Below, one piece after another: positions 4,857 to 48,519 of a stretch of DNA of 48,594 nucleotides. A model generated the notes under the pieces. That model searched no databases and had not been told where the DNA came from. It saw nothing but the letters and a program-made list of their open reading frames with translations. Position 1 is the first letter of the stretch. The number at the start of each line of letters is the position of its first letter. Where the stretch lies: IMG/VR virus record IMGVR_UViG_3300010362_000026, positions 1 to 48,594 of that record. The stretch is one strand, 5' to 3'. The DNA is from a virus. Its lineage: Duplodnaviria; Caudoviricetes. The position numbers and the translations under genes were made by a program.

Positions 4857-7604
4857 CTATTGCGGGAAATTGAACCCCGGCAACCTTTGTATGTCCTCAT
4901 AAGACAGACCCCGCCGCCTCGCGTCGATGGAATGAAGCGCATCCTGATAGTGCTTCATGTTCTCCACCCACTGGTCGCCATAGGCCTGACGGAATCTCGG
5001 GGTGTCGAGCGGGATGGTGTAGTCGCGATAGACCGGCTCCATGCGCGAGCGGCTTTCCAGACCACCGGCCGGGAACATGATGCTGGTCATCTCGTCGTCC
5101 GGGCGGGGCGTAGGCACCACATAGACCGTGTCCGGCAGATCGACCTCGCCACCCTTCTTCATGCCCTTAACGCGGGCCAGCCGTGCGGGCTCGGCCATCG
5201 TCGGTCTGGCCTGCACCGGATACGGCATCGGCATGGCCAGCAACCGTGCGGCACCGGAGCCACCGGTTCTCGCCCGTGCCGATTTGGTCTTCAGCGCATT
5301 CATGAGCGAAGCCAGACCGCCGACCTGTCCGCCTTTGGCGAAGTCTCGCCGGTTCGGATCGACCGCAGCATCGACGCCCATGGCATGGCCGACAGGTTCG
5401 CTGGACAGGCCAAGCGCAATCGATCCCGGTATGATTTCCGGCATGATCGGAACCGGCCTCATCATCCCGGCTTCGAACAGATCGCCCAGCCTTGGATTGG
5501 CTTCCTGCTCCAGCAGCTTCTTCAGCTTCTCGTCGCTGAGCGAAACAATGCCGCCTTCGGCATAGGTGCCGGGGATCATATGCGTGCGCTTGCTAAAGCC
5601 CCACACGTAGTTGGGATACACGTTATTCTCGTAGGTTTTCTTGGTGTCGGACTTCGGTATCTTCTGCTCCGGAAGATCAGGCACGCGCTTGCCGTTGATG
5701 AGATCGTTAAGCCAACCCAATCCCCACGGAGCTTCCTCTGGCATCACGTAGGCTTCGGGCGGTATGTTATCGCCGGTATCCAGCCGCTCCTTCGGGATAT
5801 CACCGGGGTATGGCAGCTGGCCCGGATACTTCTCAATCGCCAGATCGCCCCTGCCTGAATAATCCTGCGTATCCAGATTATAGTCCGGACCAAGCCGCAC
5901 CATGCCGCCCGCCTGATAGCCCTGAGTGCCTTGCGAAGGCGGAAGGGAAGCTACTCCCAGCCTTAGCCGTGGCGGCTGCTGAGGGCTTCCGTGGCGCGCT
6001 TTGCGAGTCGAGTCGACCATCCTGTCCAGATGACGCGCGCCCGCGTCCGTAGAGCCGTTGCCGAGGCCGGAAACCACATCCGAAGGGACGACATACTCGC
6101 CTTCGCTGAGTGCCGCTGGCTGCTGCCCGCCAATCGTTGCCGGGATGCTGTCCGACTGGCCGTCACTGGCCTGCATGGCTTGACCCTGCTGCGCCTGCGC
6201 CGTCTGCTGGACGCGGACAACCAAGTCCTGAAGGGCAGGCTCGCCGAACTGCTGGACGAACGTCATCAGGATTTGATCGGCCTGCGGCTTCGGCACCTGA
6301 CCCTTGATCGCCATCACCGCTTCTTGGATCAGCTGATGCTCGGCATCGGACGGCATCTGCTGCTGTGGCTGGCTCTGGAGGCCCTGCCCCTGCGATGCCG
6401 GTGCCTCGCCGATCTGGCTGGTGGGAAGATCGCTGGTCGGGATTTGCGTGGGATCATTGCCCTGATCCACGCCTTGCATCGGGAAGGTCATGTCCTGCGG
6501 CATCTGTTGCTGCGGATCGACCGGCCCACCGTTTGCCAGAGAGACGATACCGCCATTGGCATAGCCGCGTACCAGACCGCCATTGTCCATCCAGCGGAAG
6601 TTCGGGAAGTAATTATGCTCGACGCCGATTGGACTGATCGATGACGGGTAACTTGCCGTGCGAGCGCCGGACGGTAGCTGCATGGAGCCGGTGAATGCCT
6701 TGGCTTCCTTCTGTTTCTCTTCCTCGCTCTTGCCGTCGCCGGACTTCTTGTTGAACAGCGGGCTCAACAGCTGCGATGCCAGATACATCGGCATCATGTA
6801 TTTCGGGCTGAGCAGATCGCTGATGCCGAAGCCGGAAGTGGTGTCAGCGTTGACACCGCCTGCTATGGGTGCCGCTGCGGTCTTGCCCGCTGCGGGGGAT
6901 ACCGCTGGCGCGACAGCTGTCGTTTCGCCGGGATGGAGAGTGGTTAGTCCTATCTTTGGAGTAATGCCAGAGATCGTCGTTGTGGCGTTGGCGGCTGGAG
7001 ATACGGCCGTAGCCGGGGCGATATGGGTAACCCCTTCCGGTACTGCGCCGAAAGGTGCGGTGATACCGGAGATCGTTGACGTTGCGGCAGACGGAGTGGT
7101 GATTGCCGCCGTTGTCGGGGCGACCGAACCAGTTGTCACCATATCGACGGCAGCTGGAGCCGAAGCCGCTTCGATGGCTGCGGCCTGCGCGGGCGCGGAT
7201 GCAAGAGCCGCCGCTGGAGCCGCTGCCGCTGGTGTGGCCCCGAACAGCGAACCAATGCCGCTGCCGAGAGCCGAAAGGCCGGAACCGATACTGCCGAGAA
7301 GTCCGGTACCCGCCGCCGCTGGAGCCAACGCGGCAGCGGTGCCAGCCGTTCCTGCAGCTGCCGGTAAAGCTGCTGCCGCAGTGCCAGCCGCAGCCGCTGG
7401 TGAAGCCGCCCCGAACAGGCTTGCCAGAAACGGCAGGAAGAAGAACGCTTCCGGCAAACCGGTTTCCGGATTGATGGTCAGCTGGCCACCGGGAACAAGA
7501 GAGGCGATGCCAGCCAGTTCTGCCGGATGGACGTGAACCAGCATGGTGTCGCCGAACCGTCCCTTGCTCGCCAGATAGGCGGCATGTCCTCTCAGGTCTT
7601 CCAT
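4857..7604 (-). CDS. Large internal virion protein
   Basis: Start moved to ATG 7604 (GGGAG RBS, just after the upstream stop). Motifs GRFGDTMLVHV..E, LTINPETGLPE, DGQSDSIPA...LSEGEYVVPSDVVSGLGNGSTDAGA and repeated xxxGGxV. Confidence 0.75.
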   Translation of the reverse strand: MEDLRGHAAYLASKGRFGDTMLVHVHPAELAGIASLVPGGQLTINPETGLPEAFFFLPFLASLFGAASPAAAAGTAAAALPAAAGTAGTAAALAPAAAGTGLLGSIGSGLSALGSGIGSLFGATPAAAAPAAALASAPAQAAAIEAASAPAAVDMVTTGSVAPTTAAITTPSAATSTISGITAPFGAVPEGVTHIAPATAVSPAANATTTISGITPKIGLTTLHPGETTAVAPAVSPAAGKTAAAPIAGGVNADTTSGFGISDLLSPKYMMPMYLASQLLSPLFNKKSGDGKSEEEKQKEAKAFTGSMQLPSGARTASYPSSISPIGVEHNYFPNFRWMDNGGLVRGYANGGIVSLANGGPVDPQQQMPQDMTFPMQGVDQGNDPTQIPTSDLPTSQIGEAPASQGQGLQSQPQQQMPSDAEHQLIQEAVMAIKGQVPKPQADQILMTFVQQFGEPALQDLVVRVQQTAQAQQGQAMQASDGQSDSIPATIGGQQPAALSEGEYVVPSDVVSGLGNGSTDAGARHLDRMVDSTRKARHGSPQQPPRLRLGVASLPPSQGTQGYQAGGMVRLGPDYNLDTQDYSGRGDLAIEKYPGQLPYPGDIPKERLDTGDNIPPEAYVMPEEAPWGLGWLNDLINGKRVPDLPEQKIPKSDTKKTYENNVYPNYVWGFSKRTHMIPGTYAEGGIVSLSDEKLKKLLEQEANPRLGDLFEAGMMRPVPIMPEIIPGSIALGLSSEPVGHAMGVDAAVDPNRRDFAKGGQVGGLASLMNALKTKSARARTGGSGAARLLAMPMPYPVQARPTMAEPARLARVKGMKKGGEVDLPDTVYVVPTPRPDDEMTSIMFPAGGLESRSRMEPVYRDYTIPLDTPRFRQAYGDQWVENMKHYQDALHSIDARRRGLSYEDIQRLPGFNFPQ

Positions 7605-32141: not shown

Positions 32142-32216
32142 AAAAAAGGGCAGGGACCAAGCGAGGAGCCACCCCGAACCTGATCCCTGCCCCGTGCAAT
32201 CCACCCAAAGGGGGAT
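32142..32216 (-). ncRNA. Candidate small RNA/leader with terminator whose loop carries GUGGCUCCUC
   Basis: Upstream TTGATT-17-TAGTGT (32251-32223); GGGCAGGGAUCAG...UUGGUCCCUGCCC followed by U6. Confidence 0.5.
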
Positions 32217-32373
32217 GCATCGACACTATCGCGGCGCTGGACAAAAATCAACCGGAGAGGAAGGGAGCATAGTAGCAAGCAAAACCGGTTTGAATGCGAC
32301 CGGAACTGCTCCCTTCCCCATCCCCTGATCTGATATAACGGCTTCAAATCAGGAGATTTATCAAAAAGATAAC

Positions 32374-35115: not shown

Positions 35116-35352
35116 TTAAAACCGCGCTCGCGGTTTATCGTCTATCTTTACTCGGCGATAGACGTAGGGCCGTGTTTCCTGCCAGTCCCCTCTCATTCTG
35201 CTGTAATGCCTTCCGTGCGGCTTTTTCAGTTCGGCGATCTCTTCATTTAATGCAGTGATCTCCTTCTCCAGCCGACTGCTGTAGTCGAACATGGTCTGAA
35301 GATCGCCTCGTAGCCGCTCAATTTCCTGCCAAAGTTCTGATTTTGGTATCAT
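35116..35352 (-). CDS. Coiled-coil hypothetical protein
   Basis: ATGA overlap with the BrnA stop; heptad pattern. Confidence 0.6.
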   Translation of the reverse strand: MIPKSELWQEIERLRGDLQTMFDYSSRLEKEITALNEEIAELKKPHGRHYSRMRGDWQETRPYVYRRVKIDDKPRARF

Positions 35353-35582
35353 TTCTGCCTCTGCACATAGTCAGTCAGTACCTTGTTGATGCGGCCCTGC
35401 CAGTCCCTGCCGGTGCCTTTGAACCAGTCGACCACTTCCGGAGACAGCCGAATGGAAACATGCTCCTTGGCCTTCCGCCCTTCCACCGCGTCATTCTCAA
35501 TTGTTGCTATGTCGGGCTTTTCTGAAGTCGCCACCTTCCGTTTTGCCGCCCCCTTCTCTCCGAACTGACGTGAGATGCTCAT
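35349..35582 (-). CDS. BrnA-family antitoxin (RHH), orphan
   Basis: K..VSIRLSPEVVDWFK.TG..WQ.RIN..L; GAGGAG RBS before ATG 35582. Confidence 0.85.
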   Translation of the reverse strand: MSISRQFGEKGAAKRKVATSEKPDIATIENDAVEGRKAKEHVSIRLSPEVVDWFKGTGRDWQGRINKVLTDYVQRQK

Positions 35583-35612
35583 CTCGTCTCCTCTATCCAA
35601 TTTTCTGAAAGT

Positions 35613-36802: not shown

Positions 36803-36830
36803 TTGACAAAAATCGTTCGATGGGGAAAAT
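36803..36830 (+). promoter_or_regulatory. Sigma70-like early promoter
   Basis: Perfect TTGACA, 16-nt spacer, GAAAAT; sits at the strand switch. Confidence 0.55.
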
Positions 36831-36834
36831 GGTT

Positions 36835-37175
36835 GTCAGGTTGCCGTTGTGAAACGCCAGCCAAAACGGAAAGCCGGATGGCTCCCGTAGGAACCGAGAG
36901 AAAACTCGGTGCCGCTTCGAAAGCTGTGAAGCTCCGAAGGAGAAGGCGAAAAAACCGGACGGGGAGTTTCCCTGATCATGCTCGGTGCCGCAGAACTCCG
37001 CAGTGATTGCGCTGGTTCTGGATCGATGGCGGGGTTCAAATGATCGGCGAGGTTTCTGCGGTCGTTGCTGAAAGCAATCGGAAGGTGATGTTCAGCGCTG
37101 GTATTCCTCACTGGATTGTAGCGTGGAAATACGTGTCAAGCTGAAAGCTGCCGTGTTTCCATTGTGCAATCCATC
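36835..37175 (+). ncRNA. Large multi-domain structured leader RNA (candidate novel ncRNA)
   Basis: No credible ORF; many stems with GAAA/GNRA-type loops and long-range pairings. Confidence 0.55.
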
Positions 37176-37192: not shown

Positions 37193-37774
37193 ATGGCTAA
37201 GAACGTGAAGAATACCTCGACCAAGACCGAAGAAACTGCCGAGGACAAGCTTGCGCATTTCAAGGAAAACCTTGAAATGCACACTGTCGAGGTGATCGGC
37301 GGCAAAAAGTTCGAAGTCGGCCTTAAGGCCGATTGCACCAAGGTGATCTTCTCACCCAAGTATCGTCGGATTTTCGCCGTGCTGTCTTTCCCCAACGGGG
37401 AAAACGCAACGATCTCTCCGGAACATCTGAAGGCCGTCAAGGCCTTGAGCCCGGCGACCAAGGCCACCGTGGAGGCTCGCAACGAGGATGAACAGAGTAA
37501 TACTCTGTACATCCCCGGCAAGATCGTCGGCAAGGAAGGCGAGAAATCGTTCTTCTTTCGCTATGGCGAAAAGTTCACGGCGGATCGACTGCCGAAATCG
37601 CTCGCCGAGATCGTCCATGAGAACGATGATGGCTCTGTCATCATCGCTCTGACGACGTGGAAGGCTCGGCAGCTCTGCAATAATGCAGAGATGTTCGCCA
37701 GATTGGTCGAGAAACAGGCGGTTTACGACAAGATCGTAAATCCGCCGAAGCAGACCGCAAAAAAGACCAAGTAA
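37193..37774 (+). CDS. Early hypothetical protein
   Basis: CAGGAG RBS; 193 aa, Lys/Glu-rich. Confidence 0.8.
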   Translation: MAKNVKNTSTKTEETAEDKLAHFKENLEMHTVEVIGGKKFEVGLKADCTKVIFSPKYRRIFAVLSFPNGENATISPEHLKAVKALSPATKATVEARNEDEQSNTLYIPGKIVGKEGEKSFFFRYGEKFTADRLPKSLAEIVHENDDGSVIIALTTWKARQLCNNAEMFARLVEKQAVYDKIVNPPKQTAKKTK

Positions 37775-37783
37775 TTGGTCTTT

Positions 37784-37854
37784 GGAGCGGGGAGAAATCC
37801 CCGCTCCTTTGCGATCTACAGTCAATCAGTGACTGTAGATTTCAGAGGAGCCAC
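37784..37854 (+). repeat. Early intergenic double-hairpin element, copy 1
   Basis: GGAGCGGGGA-GAAA-TCCCCGCTCC; 11-bp stem ATCTACAGTCA/TGACTGTAGAT; ends GAGGAGCCAC. Confidence 0.85.
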
Positions 37855-37860
37855 CTTGAA

Positions 37861-38055
37861 ATGTCGCTAGAAACTCTTGAAAGCGTACTCGAAACCTTGG
37901 TTTCGGAACGTCTTTTCTACATGAGAGAAGCGAAACGCTATCCAGAGCTTAAGCTCTGGAATGTCGTGAGTGATCGAAACCGCCGCATCAAACTCTGCAA
38001 AGAGCAGATTTTGAGAACACGGTTTCGGCAGAACAACGCAATGGCTGCCGAATAG
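37861..38055 (+). CDS. Early hypothetical protein
   Basis: Follows the RBS of element 1. Confidence 0.7.
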   Translation: MSLETLESVLETLVSERLFYMREAKRYPELKLWNVVSDRNRRIKLCKEQILRTRFRQNNAMAAE

Positions 38056-38060
38056 CAGCC

Positions 38061-38134
38061 ATGGGGAGGAGAAATCCTCCCCATTCGCTCTTGCGAGAAG
38101 TACTAGATAGGCTAGTACTTCTTTGAGGAGCCAC
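38061..38134 (+). repeat. Early intergenic double-hairpin element, copy 2
   Basis: ATGGGGAGGA-GAAA-TCCTCCCCAT; 11-bp stem AGAAGTACTAG/CTAGTACTTCT; ends GAGGAGCCAC. Confidence 0.85.
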
Positions 38135-38138
38135 GAAA

Positions 38139-38450
38139 ATGCTCAATATCGGAACCATTTCTCACGGTACCATGCGCACTCAGGATTTGCTGGTCAGCTT
38201 CGCAGAAGCTTACAAGCAATACTGCAGCGGGCCGAGTTTCGACGGGCTGCTTTGGGCTGAAGCCCAAGGTTATGCGAGCCTTCTGAAGCATGAGAATGTT
38301 TCGGATGATTGCTGGTACAGAGCCCATGGCGTTCTGGATGATCTGTTTGATCGTCTGGACGAATTGGCTGGCCGCTATGACTGCTACTTCGGTACTACCG
38401 AGGGCGACGGATCGGATTTCGGCTTCTGGCCGATAGCGGATGACGAATAG
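38139..38450 (+). CDS. Early hypothetical protein (acidic)
   Basis: GTISHGT.R.QDL...LFD.L......YFG..EGDGSDFGFW. Confidence 0.8.
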   Translation: MLNIGTISHGTMRTQDLLVSFAEAYKQYCSGPSFDGLLWAEAQGYASLLKHENVSDDCWYRAHGVLDDLFDRLDELAGRYDCYFGTTEGDGSDFGFWPIADDE

Positions 38451-38457
38451 TCATCCT

Positions 38458-38531
38458 AGAGCGGGGAGAAATCCCCGCTCTCTCTTGCGAGCTACAGCAA
38501 ATCGTTGCTGTAGCTTTGAGGAGAGAGCCAC
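38458..38531 (+). repeat. Early intergenic double-hairpin element, copy 3
   Basis: AGAGCGGGGA-GAAA-TCCCCGCTCT; 11-bp stem AGCTACAGCAA/TTGCTGTAGCT; ends GAGGAGAGAGCCAC. Confidence 0.85.
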
Positions 38532-38532
38532 A

Positions 38533-38787
38533 ATGATGGTTACCACCAAAGCTCAACGCAAAGCGTTGAAACGGGTTTTTGATCGCTGTCCTTTGTTCAT
38601 TCTTTGGAATGGACAAACTTGGATGCCGACCAATGCCGAGGGTTGGAACGCTCATAAGCGTTCCACTCAGCCGGATATGACCTACCGGCAATTCCGCAAG
38701 CTGGCCATAGCAAGCTATGGCTGCATCATGGTTCCATGGTGCGGAATGTGGCTCGGCATTGAGCCGGACGGCTACACACACAGCTGA
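38533..38787 (+). CDS. Early hypothetical protein
   Basis: Start moved to 38533; TYRQFR...MV.W.GMWLGIEPDGYTHS. Confidence 0.8.
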   Translation: MMVTTKAQRKALKRVFDRCPLFILWNGQTWMPTNAEGWNAHKRSTQPDMTYRQFRKLAIASYGCIMVPWCGMWLGIEPDGYTHS

Positions 38788-38792
38788 GAACT

Positions 38793-38869
38793 GGCGGGGC
38801 GAAAGCCCCGCCTATTCACTCTTGTTTCAAGTAATGGATAGGCCATTACTTGATTGAGGAGTGAGCCAC
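38793..38869 (+). repeat. Early intergenic double-hairpin element, copy 4
   Basis: GGCGGGGC-GAAA-GCCCCGCC; 11-bp stem TCAAGTAATGG/CCATTACTTGA; ends GAGGAGTGAGCCAC. Confidence 0.85.
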
Positions 38870-39043
38870 ATGAAAACATGTCCTTGCGGATCGGGCAAAT
38901 ATCGTGAAGAACTTCACGATGCTCGCGGCATCTTCTGCTGCTTCTACTGCGAAGATTGCGAGAAGGAAAAGCGCTCGCGCTATCGTCAAGACGTTCTTGA
39001 CGATCCGAACTACTGGCATGACGAGCCGATAGACGAGGAATAA
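38870..39043 (+). CDS. Small Zn-binding early protein (SEC-C-like CPCGSG)
   Basis: MKTCPCGSGK....DARGI.C..C..C. Confidence 0.75.
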   Translation: MKTCPCGSGKYREELHDARGIFCCFYCEDCEKEKRSRYRQDVLDDPNYWHDEPIDEE

Positions 39044-39054
39044 CCAGCGAAATC

Positions 39055-39087
39055 AAGGGGTTGCGCGCAAGCGCAGCCCCTTTTTTT
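39055..39087 (+). terminator. Intrinsic terminator ending the early cluster
   Basis: GGGGTTGCGC-GCAA-GCGCAGCCCC followed by T7. Confidence 0.85.
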
Positions 39088-39120
39088 GTGCTTTCGCGCG
39101 CGGGAGGGCCAGCGCCTTCT

Positions 39121-44644: not shown

Positions 44645-45808
44645 TTACTTGCCCTGCGCCTTGGTGAGATTGTCCCAACCCTGCACTTCCTTGGCATCGC
44701 GGCGCATGTCCAGCTTGCGGACGTTGCCGTTATGGTACTGATTGATCAACGCCATCACCTGCGGGCCGATCTCGCCGCGAGCCACCTGAGTACTCGACAG
44801 TTCGGTCCCTGCTTTCGGGCCGATCACATGACCCTTGGTGCCGAGCAGGACGAAGGTATGGCAGACCTTCGTATACGCCGCATCGTACATGGTCTTGGTG
44901 CCGTAGAAGACGAAGCTGGCTTCGTAGCTGAGCCCCCAGCGTTCCAGAAGCTGCAGCCCCATCGGCAGATACTCGTCCGGCACGATCACGTAGGCGATGC
45001 ATTCCTTGCCCATGGTCGGCTTCGCCACCGATCCGACTGCATTGGCGATTTCGAAGTCGGGCTGGACAAGGATCACGTTGTAGTCGATGCCGCGCGCCTT
45101 GACGGTTTCCGCCACCTTCTTGGCCTGCACCTTCTTCTTCTTCTGCTCCTCCTTGTAGCTGTCGATCTTGTCGAGCGCCTTCGCCGCCTGCGTGGTGTTC
45201 TGAGCGATGGTGCCGACCGCCGCCATCTCCTCGCCGGTATATTCCGGCTTGTTCGACAACTGCTTGGCCTTGGCCATCTTGCCGCGCGCCTTCTCCAGAA
45301 GATCGATGCCCGCTGCCTGCTTTGCCGCAGTACGGACGGCAGTAGGCGTCACGTCGAACTCCTTGGCGATGTTGTCGGCAGTCGAGCCCTTGCCCTTGGC
45401 CGGTGCCTTGCCACCGCCCGTCATCGCGGTGACCTTCTGCTCGTTGTAGAGCTTGCCGATGAAGTAGGTGAAGCGGGCCGGGGTCAGGTTCCTCCGCGCC
45501 AGCTGGTTGCGGATGATCCACTGCTTCACCTCCTCCTCGTCCTTGAACGACTTGTAGACGATGGGCACGTTGATCTTCAGTTCCTTGCCGATCTGGTAAC
45601 GGGTATGACCGTCGGCGATCTGGTTCTTCTCCTTCCACACCACGATAGGATCGCGCACGCCCTCCTTTTCGAGCATGGTCTTAAGTTCCTTCAGGCTCTC
45701 TTCGGTCTGGATATCCAGTAAAGCCTGAAAATCGGGGTTGATGGTCGGCTCCGGAGCGGTCTGCTCCAGCTTCTCACCGCCTTCAATTGCTTCCTTGATG
45801 CTAGCCAT
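44645..45808 (-). CDS. ParB-like N-terminal domain fused to a degenerate MT-A70-like methyltransferase domain
   Basis: EGVRDPI.VW....ADGHTRY...NQL.RRNL; C-terminal YNVILVQPDF, LLERWG..Y...FV, HTFVLLGTKG and QGWD. Confidence 0.7.
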   Translation of the reverse strand: MASIKEAIEGGEKLEQTAPEPTINPDFQALLDIQTEESLKELKTMLEKEGVRDPIVVWKEKNQIADGHTRYQIGKELKINVPIVYKSFKDEEEVKQWIIRNQLARRNLTPARFTYFIGKLYNEQKVTAMTGGGKAPAKGKGSTADNIAKEFDVTPTAVRTAAKQAAGIDLLEKARGKMAKAKQLSNKPEYTGEEMAAVGTIAQNTTQAAKALDKIDSYKEEQKKKKVQAKKVAETVKARGIDYNVILVQPDFEIANAVGSVAKPTMGKECIAYVIVPDEYLPMGLQLLERWGLSYEASFVFYGTKTMYDAAYTKVCHTFVLLGTKGHVIGPKAGTELSSTQVARGEIGPQVMALINQYHNGNVRKLDMRRDAKEVQGWDNLTKAQGK

Positions 45809-46478
45809 TGTCAGTTTCTCCTGTTGTCGTGTTCAGCTTCTTCGATATCTCAATCGAACCCAGCTGCCGTGCAGCGTTGATTGCCTGTTCTCTGGTCTTT
45901 CGAAGAGCGCAACGCTGCTCGCCGATCTTCGATTGTCCAACCCATCCGGTGACCTTTTCCCGCTTGTCGAGCGAGTATGCCATCACCGAATAGAGCCTGA
46001 TGTTCTTGACATTGAGGCGGTATTCGTCCGCACTCAGTATGATATGTCTGTCGATTAACCCATTGCGGTGAAGCTTATCATAAACCTTGCGCCGCCACAT
46101 AGCCCTGACCCGCATGGTGATTGCGTATCTTTGCTTTCTAGTACTGCGCTCCCGTCCATTGAGCATGAAGAAAGCATTGGGTTGGGCATCGATATAGATG
46201 CTCTCCAAACTCCAGTATGGTTCCGTATCAAGCAGTTTACGGATTAGCCATGGCAGTTCCTTTGCCTCTTCCTCCTTGATCCACGCCGGTTGCCATTGCT
46301 TGTTCCAAACCAGCGCCTTGCGATGCTCTGCAAGCGTGGTCTTCATCTTGAGGATAAGGTTGCCCATATCGGTCGAAGTCTTCTGCAACCGCAATGGCTC
46401 AACCACACGCAGCATCTTCCTGAGAGTGACGATCTCGCGCCAAAGCTCGTCCTGTATCTGGCGATACCCCTTATCCAT
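45801..46478 (-). CDS. Hypothetical protein
   Basis: Start moved to MDKGYRQ, which overlaps the upstream stop. Confidence 0.7.
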   Translation of the reverse strand: MDKGYRQIQDELWREIVTLRKMLRVVEPLRLQKTSTDMGNLILKMKTTLAEHRKALVWNKQWQPAWIKEEEAKELPWLIRKLLDTEPYWSLESIYIDAQPNAFFMLNGRERSTRKQRYAITMRVRAMWRRKVYDKLHRNGLIDRHIILSADEYRLNVKNIRLYSVMAYSLDKREKVTGWVGQSKIGEQRCALRKTREQAINAARQLGSIEISKKLNTTTGETDNG

Positions 46479-47664
46479 GATGACGGTCCATCGGATGCAG
46501 CAGATTGATGTAGGTGCCGAACGGAGCGACATCCTTGCCGGTCGCCGCCCACAGAACCGGCCAGTCCGGAGCTTCATGCGCCTTGGGGAAATCATGGATT
46601 TCCATGTCGGTGAAACAGATTTGCCAGTCGATTGGCTCATCCATCTTCTTCACCAGATCGAACACCGGCCGGATGTTGGTACCGCCGCGCCCCTTGATCG
46701 CCAGCTCGTTGAACTCCATGCCGCTCTCCCACTCATCGATTTTCTGAATGCGGCTATCATGCTGGATGATGGTCAGCCTGTCGGGCTTCAGCTGTTCGAT
46801 GATGCCGACGATGTTGGTGACGTATTTCCGCAGTTCCTTGTCGCTCACCGATCCTGAATTATCGATTGAGAGAACGCCGTTGCCGCAGCCCCTCATGTCG
46901 AATGAAGGCGCATAGGCTCCATAGATGCCCATGATCCGCTTGTTGGGCCGCCGCCACGAATAGTCGTCCGGCACCGAACCCTTCACCCAGTGCTGGATGT
47001 ACTCGTGATAGTCGATGACCGGCTCTTGGCAGGCCTTGATGATGAACTGCAGACTGCCGGGAAGCTTGCCAACCGCCTTGGCCGTCTCGGCCGCTGAAAG
47101 CACGGAGATTTTGATATCCTCTTCCAGTTCCTTGGCTTCGCTGTCCGACATCGGCGAGCCGTTGTCGTTGCGCGGGTCCAGAACCATGCCCCACGGCAAC
47201 CTGCCACCGAACTGCTTCTTCAGTTCCTCGGCCTGCTGGATGAGATCGTCATAGACCCGATCCACCAGCCAGTTCTCGTACTTCGGATTGAACAGACCGT
47301 TTGCTGGCAGCTTGGCCCCGGCCTTGAGCACCGTCTGGTTGATCTGAAAGTCGCAGGCAATGTTCCAGATCAGCGGAATGCGGTTTCCGCGCCGAGCGAA
47401 GTGCAGAAGAATGACGTGCAGCATCTCGTGGATGAGGACGCCGATCACCTCCTCCTGAGTAATGCTTTCGACAAAGTCCTCATTCCACCAGACATGAGCG
47501 CCATCGGTGGCCATGGTATCGATGAATTCCATGCCGTCTTCACGGGCATTCCTGAACTTCAGGCGGGTGGCGACCAGCCCGAAAAACATAAAGCGAATAA
47601 GCAGCTGTGTCTTCGCTTGGGTAATTCGCAGCTCACCCTTCTTCAGTAATTCCAGTCGTGTCAT
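46471..47664 (-). CDS. Metallopeptidase-like plus VWA domain protein (DUF2201-like)
   Basis: TMATDG, HEMLH...H, WNIACD..IN, MIDAS IDNSGS, GRGGT and FTD. Confidence 0.85.
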   Translation of the reverse strand: MTRLELLKKGELRITQAKTQLLIRFMFFGLVATRLKFRNAREDGMEFIDTMATDGAHVWWNEDFVESITQEEVIGVLIHEMLHVILLHFARRGNRIPLIWNIACDFQINQTVLKAGAKLPANGLFNPKYENWLVDRVYDDLIQQAEELKKQFGGRLPWGMVLDPRNDNGSPMSDSEAKELEEDIKISVLSAAETAKAVGKLPGSLQFIIKACQEPVIDYHEYIQHWVKGSVPDDYSWRRPNKRIMGIYGAYAPSFDMRGCGNGVLSIDNSGSVSDKELRKYVTNIVGIIEQLKPDRLTIIQHDSRIQKIDEWESGMEFNELAIKGRGGTNIRPVFDLVKKMDEPIDWQICFTDMEIHDFPKAHEAPDWPVLWAATGKDVAPFGTYINLLHPMDRHHG

Positions 47665-48304: not shown

Positions 48305-48519
48305 CGTGGCTCACTCCTCTTGTTTTCAAGCGTTCTCAGCAGCCAGATACGCCCCCATTTGGAGGCATACGCAGCCAAACGCTGATGGTCGATGGCGAGA
48401 TCGAGATCGCCGCGTTCGCGGCAATCCATGGCGGTCTTGTAGTGATAGGCGGCCTGCCGCTGGAACCCCGCGACGTTCTGCGCGGGGTTCTTGAAGTTCA
48501 TCTTGCGGGTCATGTTCAT
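48301..48519 (-). CDS. Hypothetical protein
   Basis: ATGA overlap with the downstream gene. Confidence 0.55.
   Translation of the reverse strand: MNMTRKMNFKNPAQNVAGFQRQAAYHYKTAMDCRERGDLDLAIDHQRLAAYASKWGRIWLLRTLENKRSEPR

Follow-up and report, generated by a model that had tools for sequence, protein, structure and literature searches.

The window analysed here, a stretch of 48,594 nt of viral DNA, carries five small ORFs in a row on its plus strand, and each gap between them is occupied by a double hairpin. This raises the question of what a structure repeated in this way does between genes. The original prediction, made from the letters of the DNA, held that these modules are processing sites at which RNase III frees the next RBS, and named attC-like recombination sites as the alternative.

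Genomic setting of the early operon

The window is the whole of virus record G000, which is 80% complete. The large terminase it encodes shares about 50% identity with its counterparts in the Pelagibacter phages HTVC027P and HTVC023P. We only infer that the host of this phage is an alphaproteobacterium. A soil metagenome run was found to contain the phage, and the same run is possibly its source.

On one side of the five ORFs lies a small terminase gene in divergent orientation and on the other a primase-helicase gene; family searches assigned no known function to the ORF products. The genes are called early because of the operon layout, which opens with a promoter-like site (36803) and closes with a terminator-like one (39055; Table 1). 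A similar −35 box was found in L088, L253, and L255 at the position equivalent to that of the window promoter. The region between 36840 and 37110 is a long structured leader (z −4.0 when taken together with the gene-1 leader) and has no match in Rfam. Motifs of this leader, such as AAAGCTGTGAAG and GTGAT, recur in L085, L088, L253, L257, and L259. A 9-bp hairpin spans the stop codon of gene 1 (37762–37783), just 5′ of module 1, and a similar stop-spanning hairpin is present in L259.

Elsewhere on the minus strand, a BrnA antitoxin-like gene stands alone at 35349–35600 (PF14384, E 9e-15), and genes for a DUF2201 metallopeptidase/VWA-like protein and a ParB-N protein lie toward the end of the window (46471–47664 and 44645–45808, respectively).

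Among isolated phages, only one 68-bp coding match to the window was found, and among viral contigs there were no close primase relatives. The gene-1 alignment against bacterial genomes matched in none of 103 candidate stretches, so neither a prophage nor a host was found. Relatives with the same layout were reached via gene-1 and small-terminase homologues.

Table 1. Coordinates of the operon parts, modules, and candidate small RNA in the window.
Feature	Position	Strand	Basis
Sigma70-like early promoter, TTGACA-16-GAAAAT	36803..36830	+	promoter scan
Fifth core copy with branched top, in gene-1 leader; 3′ arm 37164–37173 is a 10-nt match to small-RNA hairpin A	37113..37172	+	folding
Early gene 1, 193 aa, no family, 21 homologues	37193..37774	+	ORF list, homologue search
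Module 1: hairpin 1 37784–37807, long hairpin 37803–37851; predicted cuts after 37814 and before 37842	37784..37851	+	folding
Early gene 2, 64 aa	37861..38055	+	weak homologues, in second position, in G001, G002, G003, L253
Module 2: hairpin 1 38061–38084, long hairpin 38087–38131; predicted cuts after 38096 and before 38124	38061..38131	+	folding
Early gene 3, 103 aa, phrog_29605 (unknown function)	38139..38450	+	family search
Module 3: hairpin 1 38458–38481, long hairpin 38477–38528; predicted cuts after 38490 and before 38517	38458..38528	+	folding
Early gene 4, 84 aa, no family; common in viral contigs	38533..38787	+	homologue search
Module 4: hairpin 1 38793–38812, long hairpin 38815–38865; predicted cuts after 38827 and before 38855	38793..38865	+	folding
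Early gene 5, 57 aa, Cys-rich	38870..39043	+	ORF list
Intrinsic terminator-like hairpin and U-tract, end of operon	39055..39088	+	terminator scan
Candidate two-hairpin small RNA with U-tail; the hairpin B seed is complementary to the module RBS tag, hairpin A to the gene-1 leader	32142..32222	−	folding, complementarity
Promoter-like TTGATT-17-TAGTGT, directly upstream of candidate RNA	32223..32251	−	read from sequence, outside promoter scan

Structure and conservation of the intergenic modules

The four modules lie where they had been placed, one in each gap among the five ORFs, and the strong folding claimed for their double hairpins was borne out, with z scores of −6.60, −7.45, −7.08, and −8.38 for modules 1–4. 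Each was more stable than all 200 of its dinucleotide shuffles. The window contains seven perfect hairpins of at least 11 bp, compared with 0–1 in each of 15 Markov simulations, and four of the seven are the upper stems of the modules. The lower-stem pairings quoted in the original prediction agree with our folds, as does the overlap of hairpin 1 in copies 1 and 3. The number of copies was right for the gaps, but a fifth, branched copy was found in the leader of gene 1. Across the whole window nothing matched Rfam at the gathering threshold; mir-26 and BjrC68 appeared as sub-threshold hairpin matches only and were rejected.

The modules might serve merely as stabilisers, pause sites, or leaky terminators by which expression is graded through the operon. 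Each stop codon is followed by the GC-rich hairpin 1, the first gap of G002 contains a hairpin with a six-U tail, and in L088 and L257 the first gap retains hairpin 1 alone. However, none of the four window modules was called as an intrinsic terminator (a GC stem followed by at least five U) in the terminator scan, yet the hairpin at 39055 was. Such a role also leaves the hairpin that pairs with the SD unaccounted for, and we consider it very unlikely to be the whole function.

Three copies each of the window's module were found in L253/L254 and in G002 (L259), ahead of largely different genes. Across these 10 copies from three genomes, 97.4% of 190 cells were paired and 14 of 19 pairs were altered on both sides, although the copies share ancestry and these counts are not independent. 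None of 500 shuffles reached the covariation score, which for the same reason does not amount to a probability, and slid controls paired at 43–52%. The covariance model search that had been proposed, run over 100 of about 310 sources, returned one outside match (E 1e-6) and its neighbour (E 0.07), both in L180 (G004). This diverged pair is located upstream of the small terminase and follows the same two-hairpin plan. Module patterns gave no match in viral contigs or in bacterial genomes. Another module pattern scan gave 47 matches at 45 loci, only three of which pair at 10/11 or more, all in G002, and descriptor scans of the loci of gene-3 and gene-4 homologues found no copy with both hairpins ahead of a gene.

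In the 10 anchored copies, upper-stem positions 2–11 are Watson-Crick in 100/100 cells. Position 0 is G.U in 9/10, position −1 is a pyrimidine mismatch in 10/10, and U-A at −3 and Y-G at −4 are each present in 10/10. The upper helix has 11 bp plus the G.U, and the core is a G.U/C.U centre. That structure and not sequence is conserved is correct for the variable upper stems but not for this core (YYU-GCG / UUN-AG), which is conserved in sequence; the leaders of gene 1 carry it too, with C.U at −1 and G.U at 0 in 6/6 examined. The GAAA loop of hairpin 1 is present in the modules as described, but it is dispensable, as relatives carry UUCG, GCGA, or a 7-nt loop. In all 10 copies the SD is paired within the long hairpin, and the arms are symmetric without extrahelical bases. 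The wobbles (G.U at 1, 0, and −2; U.G at −4) would be A.C on the opposite strand, which indicates that it is the sense strand that folds. The module is real, conserved, and uncatalogued; its pairing pattern, covariation, position, and sense-strand G.U bias can be read directly from the copies.

This anatomy bears on the idea that the modules are attC-like ssDNA recombination sites of an integron-type cassette array. Like attC sites as described in PMC5027507, they provide one hairpin per gene whose structure is conserved over variable sequence. However, only one GTTRRRY was found in 3049 bases, against 3.9 expected, and it lies inside gene 4; there is no R box. The extrahelical bases and unpaired central spacer that belong to the attC definition in PMC5027507 are missing from the symmetric arms. 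No phage integrase domain is present in the window (an 80% complete record), and the XerC/D-like recombinase of G001 falls below the cut-off on models specific for integron integrases. Moreover, every module carries the SD of the next gene. This alternative fails on the R box, the extrahelical bases and spacer, and the integron integrase, and we regard it as extremely improbable.

Fit of the modules to RNase III substrates

In PMC1540722, the minimal helix for RNase III is given as 11 bp, and the proximal box as G-C at position 1 and A-U/U-A at position 2. The same paper describes G-C beside the cut as a catalytic antideterminant in E. coli which can permit binding without cleavage. All 10 module copies form a helix of about two turns, with an 11-bp upper stem, a 3-pair centre, and a lower stem of at least five pairs. 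The A-U and G-Y pairs of the modules are spaced as the two proximal boxes of RNase III. Taking the symmetric mates of the proximal-box pairs to be 7 and 9 pairs apart, we scored the registers on 60 criteria, and one register alone fitted the boxes on both sides (42/60 versus 31 for the next). In this register, the upper half has A-U/U-A in 9/10 copies and G-Y in 6/10, while the lower half has both in 10/10 (G-U counted). The permutation P for the upper half was 0.0008, as the best of 8 registers. The lower-box pairs overlap the SD in six copies, yet they stay in the four copies whose SD is shifted by 2 nt. Among six leader copies, only one has A-U as the upper key pair, and the fit is confined to the lower side. 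Both L180 copies, which had not been used for training, retain A-U at the two key positions.

The distal box of E. coli (U-G, U-A) was found in only 3/10 and 1/10 copies, respectively. The distal box is ignored by Aquifex RNase III (PMC3074117). The pair beside the 5′-arm cut is G-C/C-G in 8/10 copies, and since G-C at this place suppresses cutting in E. coli, this may mean a single nick in the modules. The two central pairs are mostly wobbles or A-U, not G-C.

We also re-implemented the in vivo cleavage matrix of E. coli from Table S4 of PMC6212723, dropping gap columns. The chosen register had the best mean over 12 copies (−26.2), but was the best singly in only 6/12. Five of the 12 copies scored −25.5 or higher and all 12 scored above −33.8, with per-copy P values of 0.02–0.47 in the threaded null. 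The same geometry places the cut of T7 R1.1 at 5887/5888, which matches the published site. On T7 stems, the upper-half score picked the known register in 3/5 and was one step off in two.

Our folding showed that the predicted cut in the 3′ arm lowers the opening energy of the SD in 10/10 copies, from 2.7–8.9 to 1.1–5.3 kcal/mol, and that the upstream pieces terminate in hairpins after the cut. The gain is only 0.3 kcal/mol in copy 1, in which hairpin 1 is already a competitor. The claim that cutting releases the RBS is thus supported by prediction in every copy but is slight in copy 1. Similarly, the claim of RNase III processing finds support in the geometry and base-pair pattern, which allow cut sites to be predicted, but not in the distal box of E. 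coli. Neither an RNase III domain nor gene was found in five phage records, one of them at least 90% complete, and the enzyme would accordingly be that of the host.

The long hairpin could instead be a mask over the RBS that is opened without cleavage by ribosomes finishing the upstream gene, by refolding of hairpin 1, or by a dsRNA-binding protein, including RNase III that does not cut. The pairing of the SD in every copy would suit this, as would, for copies 1 and 3 of the window, the overlap of hairpin 1 with the anti-SD strand, and the binding alone that a G-C beside the cut can permit. But a mask of this kind explains neither why the upper stem is fixed at 11 bp and otherwise free in sequence, nor why pairs like those of the proximal box occur on both sides. 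We consider it unlikely, though the most credible of the alternatives weighed here. The modules are probably processing signals for host RNase III on an early polycistronic mRNA, and the cut would likely free each RBS.

Processing by RNase III might proceed as follows. Transcription would begin from the promoter-like site (36803) and stop at the terminator (39055), presumably early in infection. RNase III would bind in the single register and cut the 3′ arm two bases before the AG of the lower stem, 14–19 nt before the ATG, and perhaps the 5′ arm too. The downstream piece would then begin with a free SD, and in some copies hairpin 1 would capture the anti-SD strand. The upstream piece would close with hairpin 1, joined by the 11-bp hairpin if only one nick is made, and its 3′ decay would be slower.

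Gene exchange at the module boundaries

The gene order after gene 2 is different in all five records compared. The window has genes 3, 4, and 5 in this order; G001 has genes 4 and 3 followed by two others; G003 has gene 3, another gene, and gene 4; and L253 and G002 have unrelated genes. A check for gain, loss, or reordering of genes at these elements was positive, in that relatives differ in their genes at the module boundaries, but any intergenic repeat would permit this. Gene exchange at the boundaries is real and is best read as a by-product.

If exchange of small genes by homologous or site-specific recombination were the main role, the modules would be joints in the DNA. It is true that genes 1–2 are fixed while later genes are swapped or replaced at the boundaries in five records, and that G001 has a tyrosine recombinase about 24 kb away. 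However, the upper stems have no sequence in common, the wobbles favour the sense strand, and homologues of genes 3 and 4 follow a different repeat family in G001 and G003, all of which makes this role quite improbable. The tyrosine recombinase (G001:49259–50104; L341:1177–2022) hints that some relatives are temperate.

The different repeat in the equivalent gaps of G001 and G003 (L085:3350–4690, L088:3927–4565) has an 8-bp lower stem and an upper hairpin that varies; GGGC/GCCC makes an alternative hairpin, which could form at a new 5′ end, and GAGGAGCCAA follows. All seven copies read retain one U-A pair. The predicted cut frees the SD in only 3/6 copies examined. ORFs resembling HNH endonucleases by eye follow the early operon at L088:4846–5283 and L085:5217–5564. 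A more distant phage has an equivalent operon (L195:3100–5600, minus strand), in which a short hairpin, CCCTTT, and TCAGGAGAA are repeated before each gene.

No RNA sequencing run among those listed contains phage sequence. Contigs from two DNA runs gave no joints, and these runs show presence only.

Candidate small RNA

The original prediction also suggested that a small RNA at 32142 may later silence the early genes. Our analysis points to a candidate without a match in Rfam (Table 1), and a similar element was found in G001 and G003 on the same strand, about 4–5 kb from gene 1. A small-RNA model run over 98 sources found only its three training copies; G002 and L253 stop short of the locus. 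Immediately upstream of the candidate on the minus strand there is a long hairpin with a pyrimidine-rich arm (32250–32330).

The seed of hairpin B complements the tag of the modules, and its tenth base tracks the targets (CCAC in the window, CCAA in G001 and G003). Hairpin A has a 10-nt complement of the gene-1 leader in the window, G001, and G003; in the window its register differs. As expected of c4-like antisense RNA, the relatives retain complementarity to the RBS of the targets. Exact matches of at least 10 nt were found at 3/5, 6/6, and 4/5 early starts of G000, G001, and G003, compared with 0/101, 0/135, and 5/35 other SD-bearing starts; the counts at early starts are partly circular, because the hairpin B seed served to find the copies of the relatives. 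This circularity does not touch the hairpin A match or the shared position. Window modules 3 and 4 match the seed over 7 nt only.

Within the seed only 4–8 nt are unpaired, and opening costs 5–7 kcal/mol. Once opening costs are counted, the four module sites of the window are placed 1, 1 (tie), 9, and 1 relative to 78 background starts, the G001 sites rank 1–3 against 95, and the three module sites of G003 come first against 22. The cognate seed is the best at 3/4 window sites, whereas the G003 seed beats G001's own at 4/5 G001 sites. An RBS identical to that of module 4 (GAGGAGTGAGCCAC), without a hairpin, precedes a 108-aa ORF at 48306–48319 on the minus strand, and it is second among the background starts for the seed. 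Equilibrium co-folding, which cannot model kissing loops, favours gene 1 alone (−10.5 kcal/mol, rank 1 versus 77) and gives about −1 kcal/mol and middle ranks at the module sites. When the whole 45-nt hairpin B was run in RNAduplex, the early genes did not stand out. The small RNA is therefore backed by its position in two relatives and its covariation with putative targets, but co-folding disfavours the module sites. A host-type promoter alone would not make it late.

As a less certain last step of the mechanism, this RNA may pair with the GAGGAGCCA tag and the gene-1 leader, and so damp the whole set. A two-step circuit is then conceivable, in which early genes would be born silent, switched on by the RNase III cut, and switched off by one phage small RNA whose one hairpin addresses the gene-1 leader and the other the shared tag. 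We put this forward tentatively and hold it to be less probable than its opposite. Were it true, any gene landing behind a module would inherit both controls, and the early operon would be a plug-in array. If the small RNA acts as predicted, the phage could silence its own early genes jointly via RNA pairing. This reading predicts that G002-type phages have a hairpin B whose seed is complementary to AGGAGCCAUC.

Comparison with known systems

Processing of phage early mRNA at intercistronic stems has long been known. A literature search, largely without subscription texts, found no description of the module, of its combination with an RNA, or of an alphaproteobacterial consensus for RNase III. 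The modules offer exact predicted positions for RNase III cleavage and, at about 70 nt each, a portable unit through which processing would be coupled to translation, probably in a non-model host.

The early mRNA of T7 has five RNase III signals, R1.1 among them (PMC3867540 and PMC8708148). The modules are built like these signals and likely work like them. Both are intercistronic stem-loops on an early polycistronic mRNA (presumed for the window) behind a host-type promoter, and both have an upper helix of about 11 bp and an irregular centre. At the proximal box both have A-U then G-C, with A-U or C-G one step closer to the cut. Membership of the modules in this type is only probable, because one E. 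coli feature fails and cleavage is predicted only. T7 signals have an asymmetric loop, whereas the modules have a symmetric wobble/mismatch centre. Unlike in T7, the lower stem uses the SD as its 3′ strand, a further hairpin upstream is able to capture the anti-SD strand, and a shared RBS tag is matched by a complementary RNA. The upper-stem sequence is also freer than the AGG-containing stems of T7, and the distal box is unmatched. The early RNase III sites of Bacillus phages SP82 and SPO1 are stem-loops between small early genes that are cut a few bases 5′ of the RBS. Their host enzyme differs, and the likeness is one of general description.

The candidate small RNA resembles the c4 antisense RNA of P1/P7, which targets the antirepressor mRNA and thereby acts in immunity (PMC12197685). 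Both are phage RNAs whose coding site lies apart from the target, with complementarity near an RBS; in c4 this is carried by loops, while in the candidate only part of the seed is unpaired. Unlike c4, the candidate would address a whole early operon via a shared tag, and it has no Rfam match.

The modules also recall the start-associated sequences of Cluster K mycobacteriophages, in which an extended SD-containing tag, conserved beyond 16S pairing, stands ahead of non-structural genes. PMC3203893 judges their inverted repeats not to form RNA hairpins and proposes the tag as the site for an unknown RNA or protein. In contrast, the hairpins of the modules covary, and the small RNA is a candidate partner for them. 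Should this RNA act as predicted, it would be a candidate for the kind of partner postulated for the start-associated sequences.
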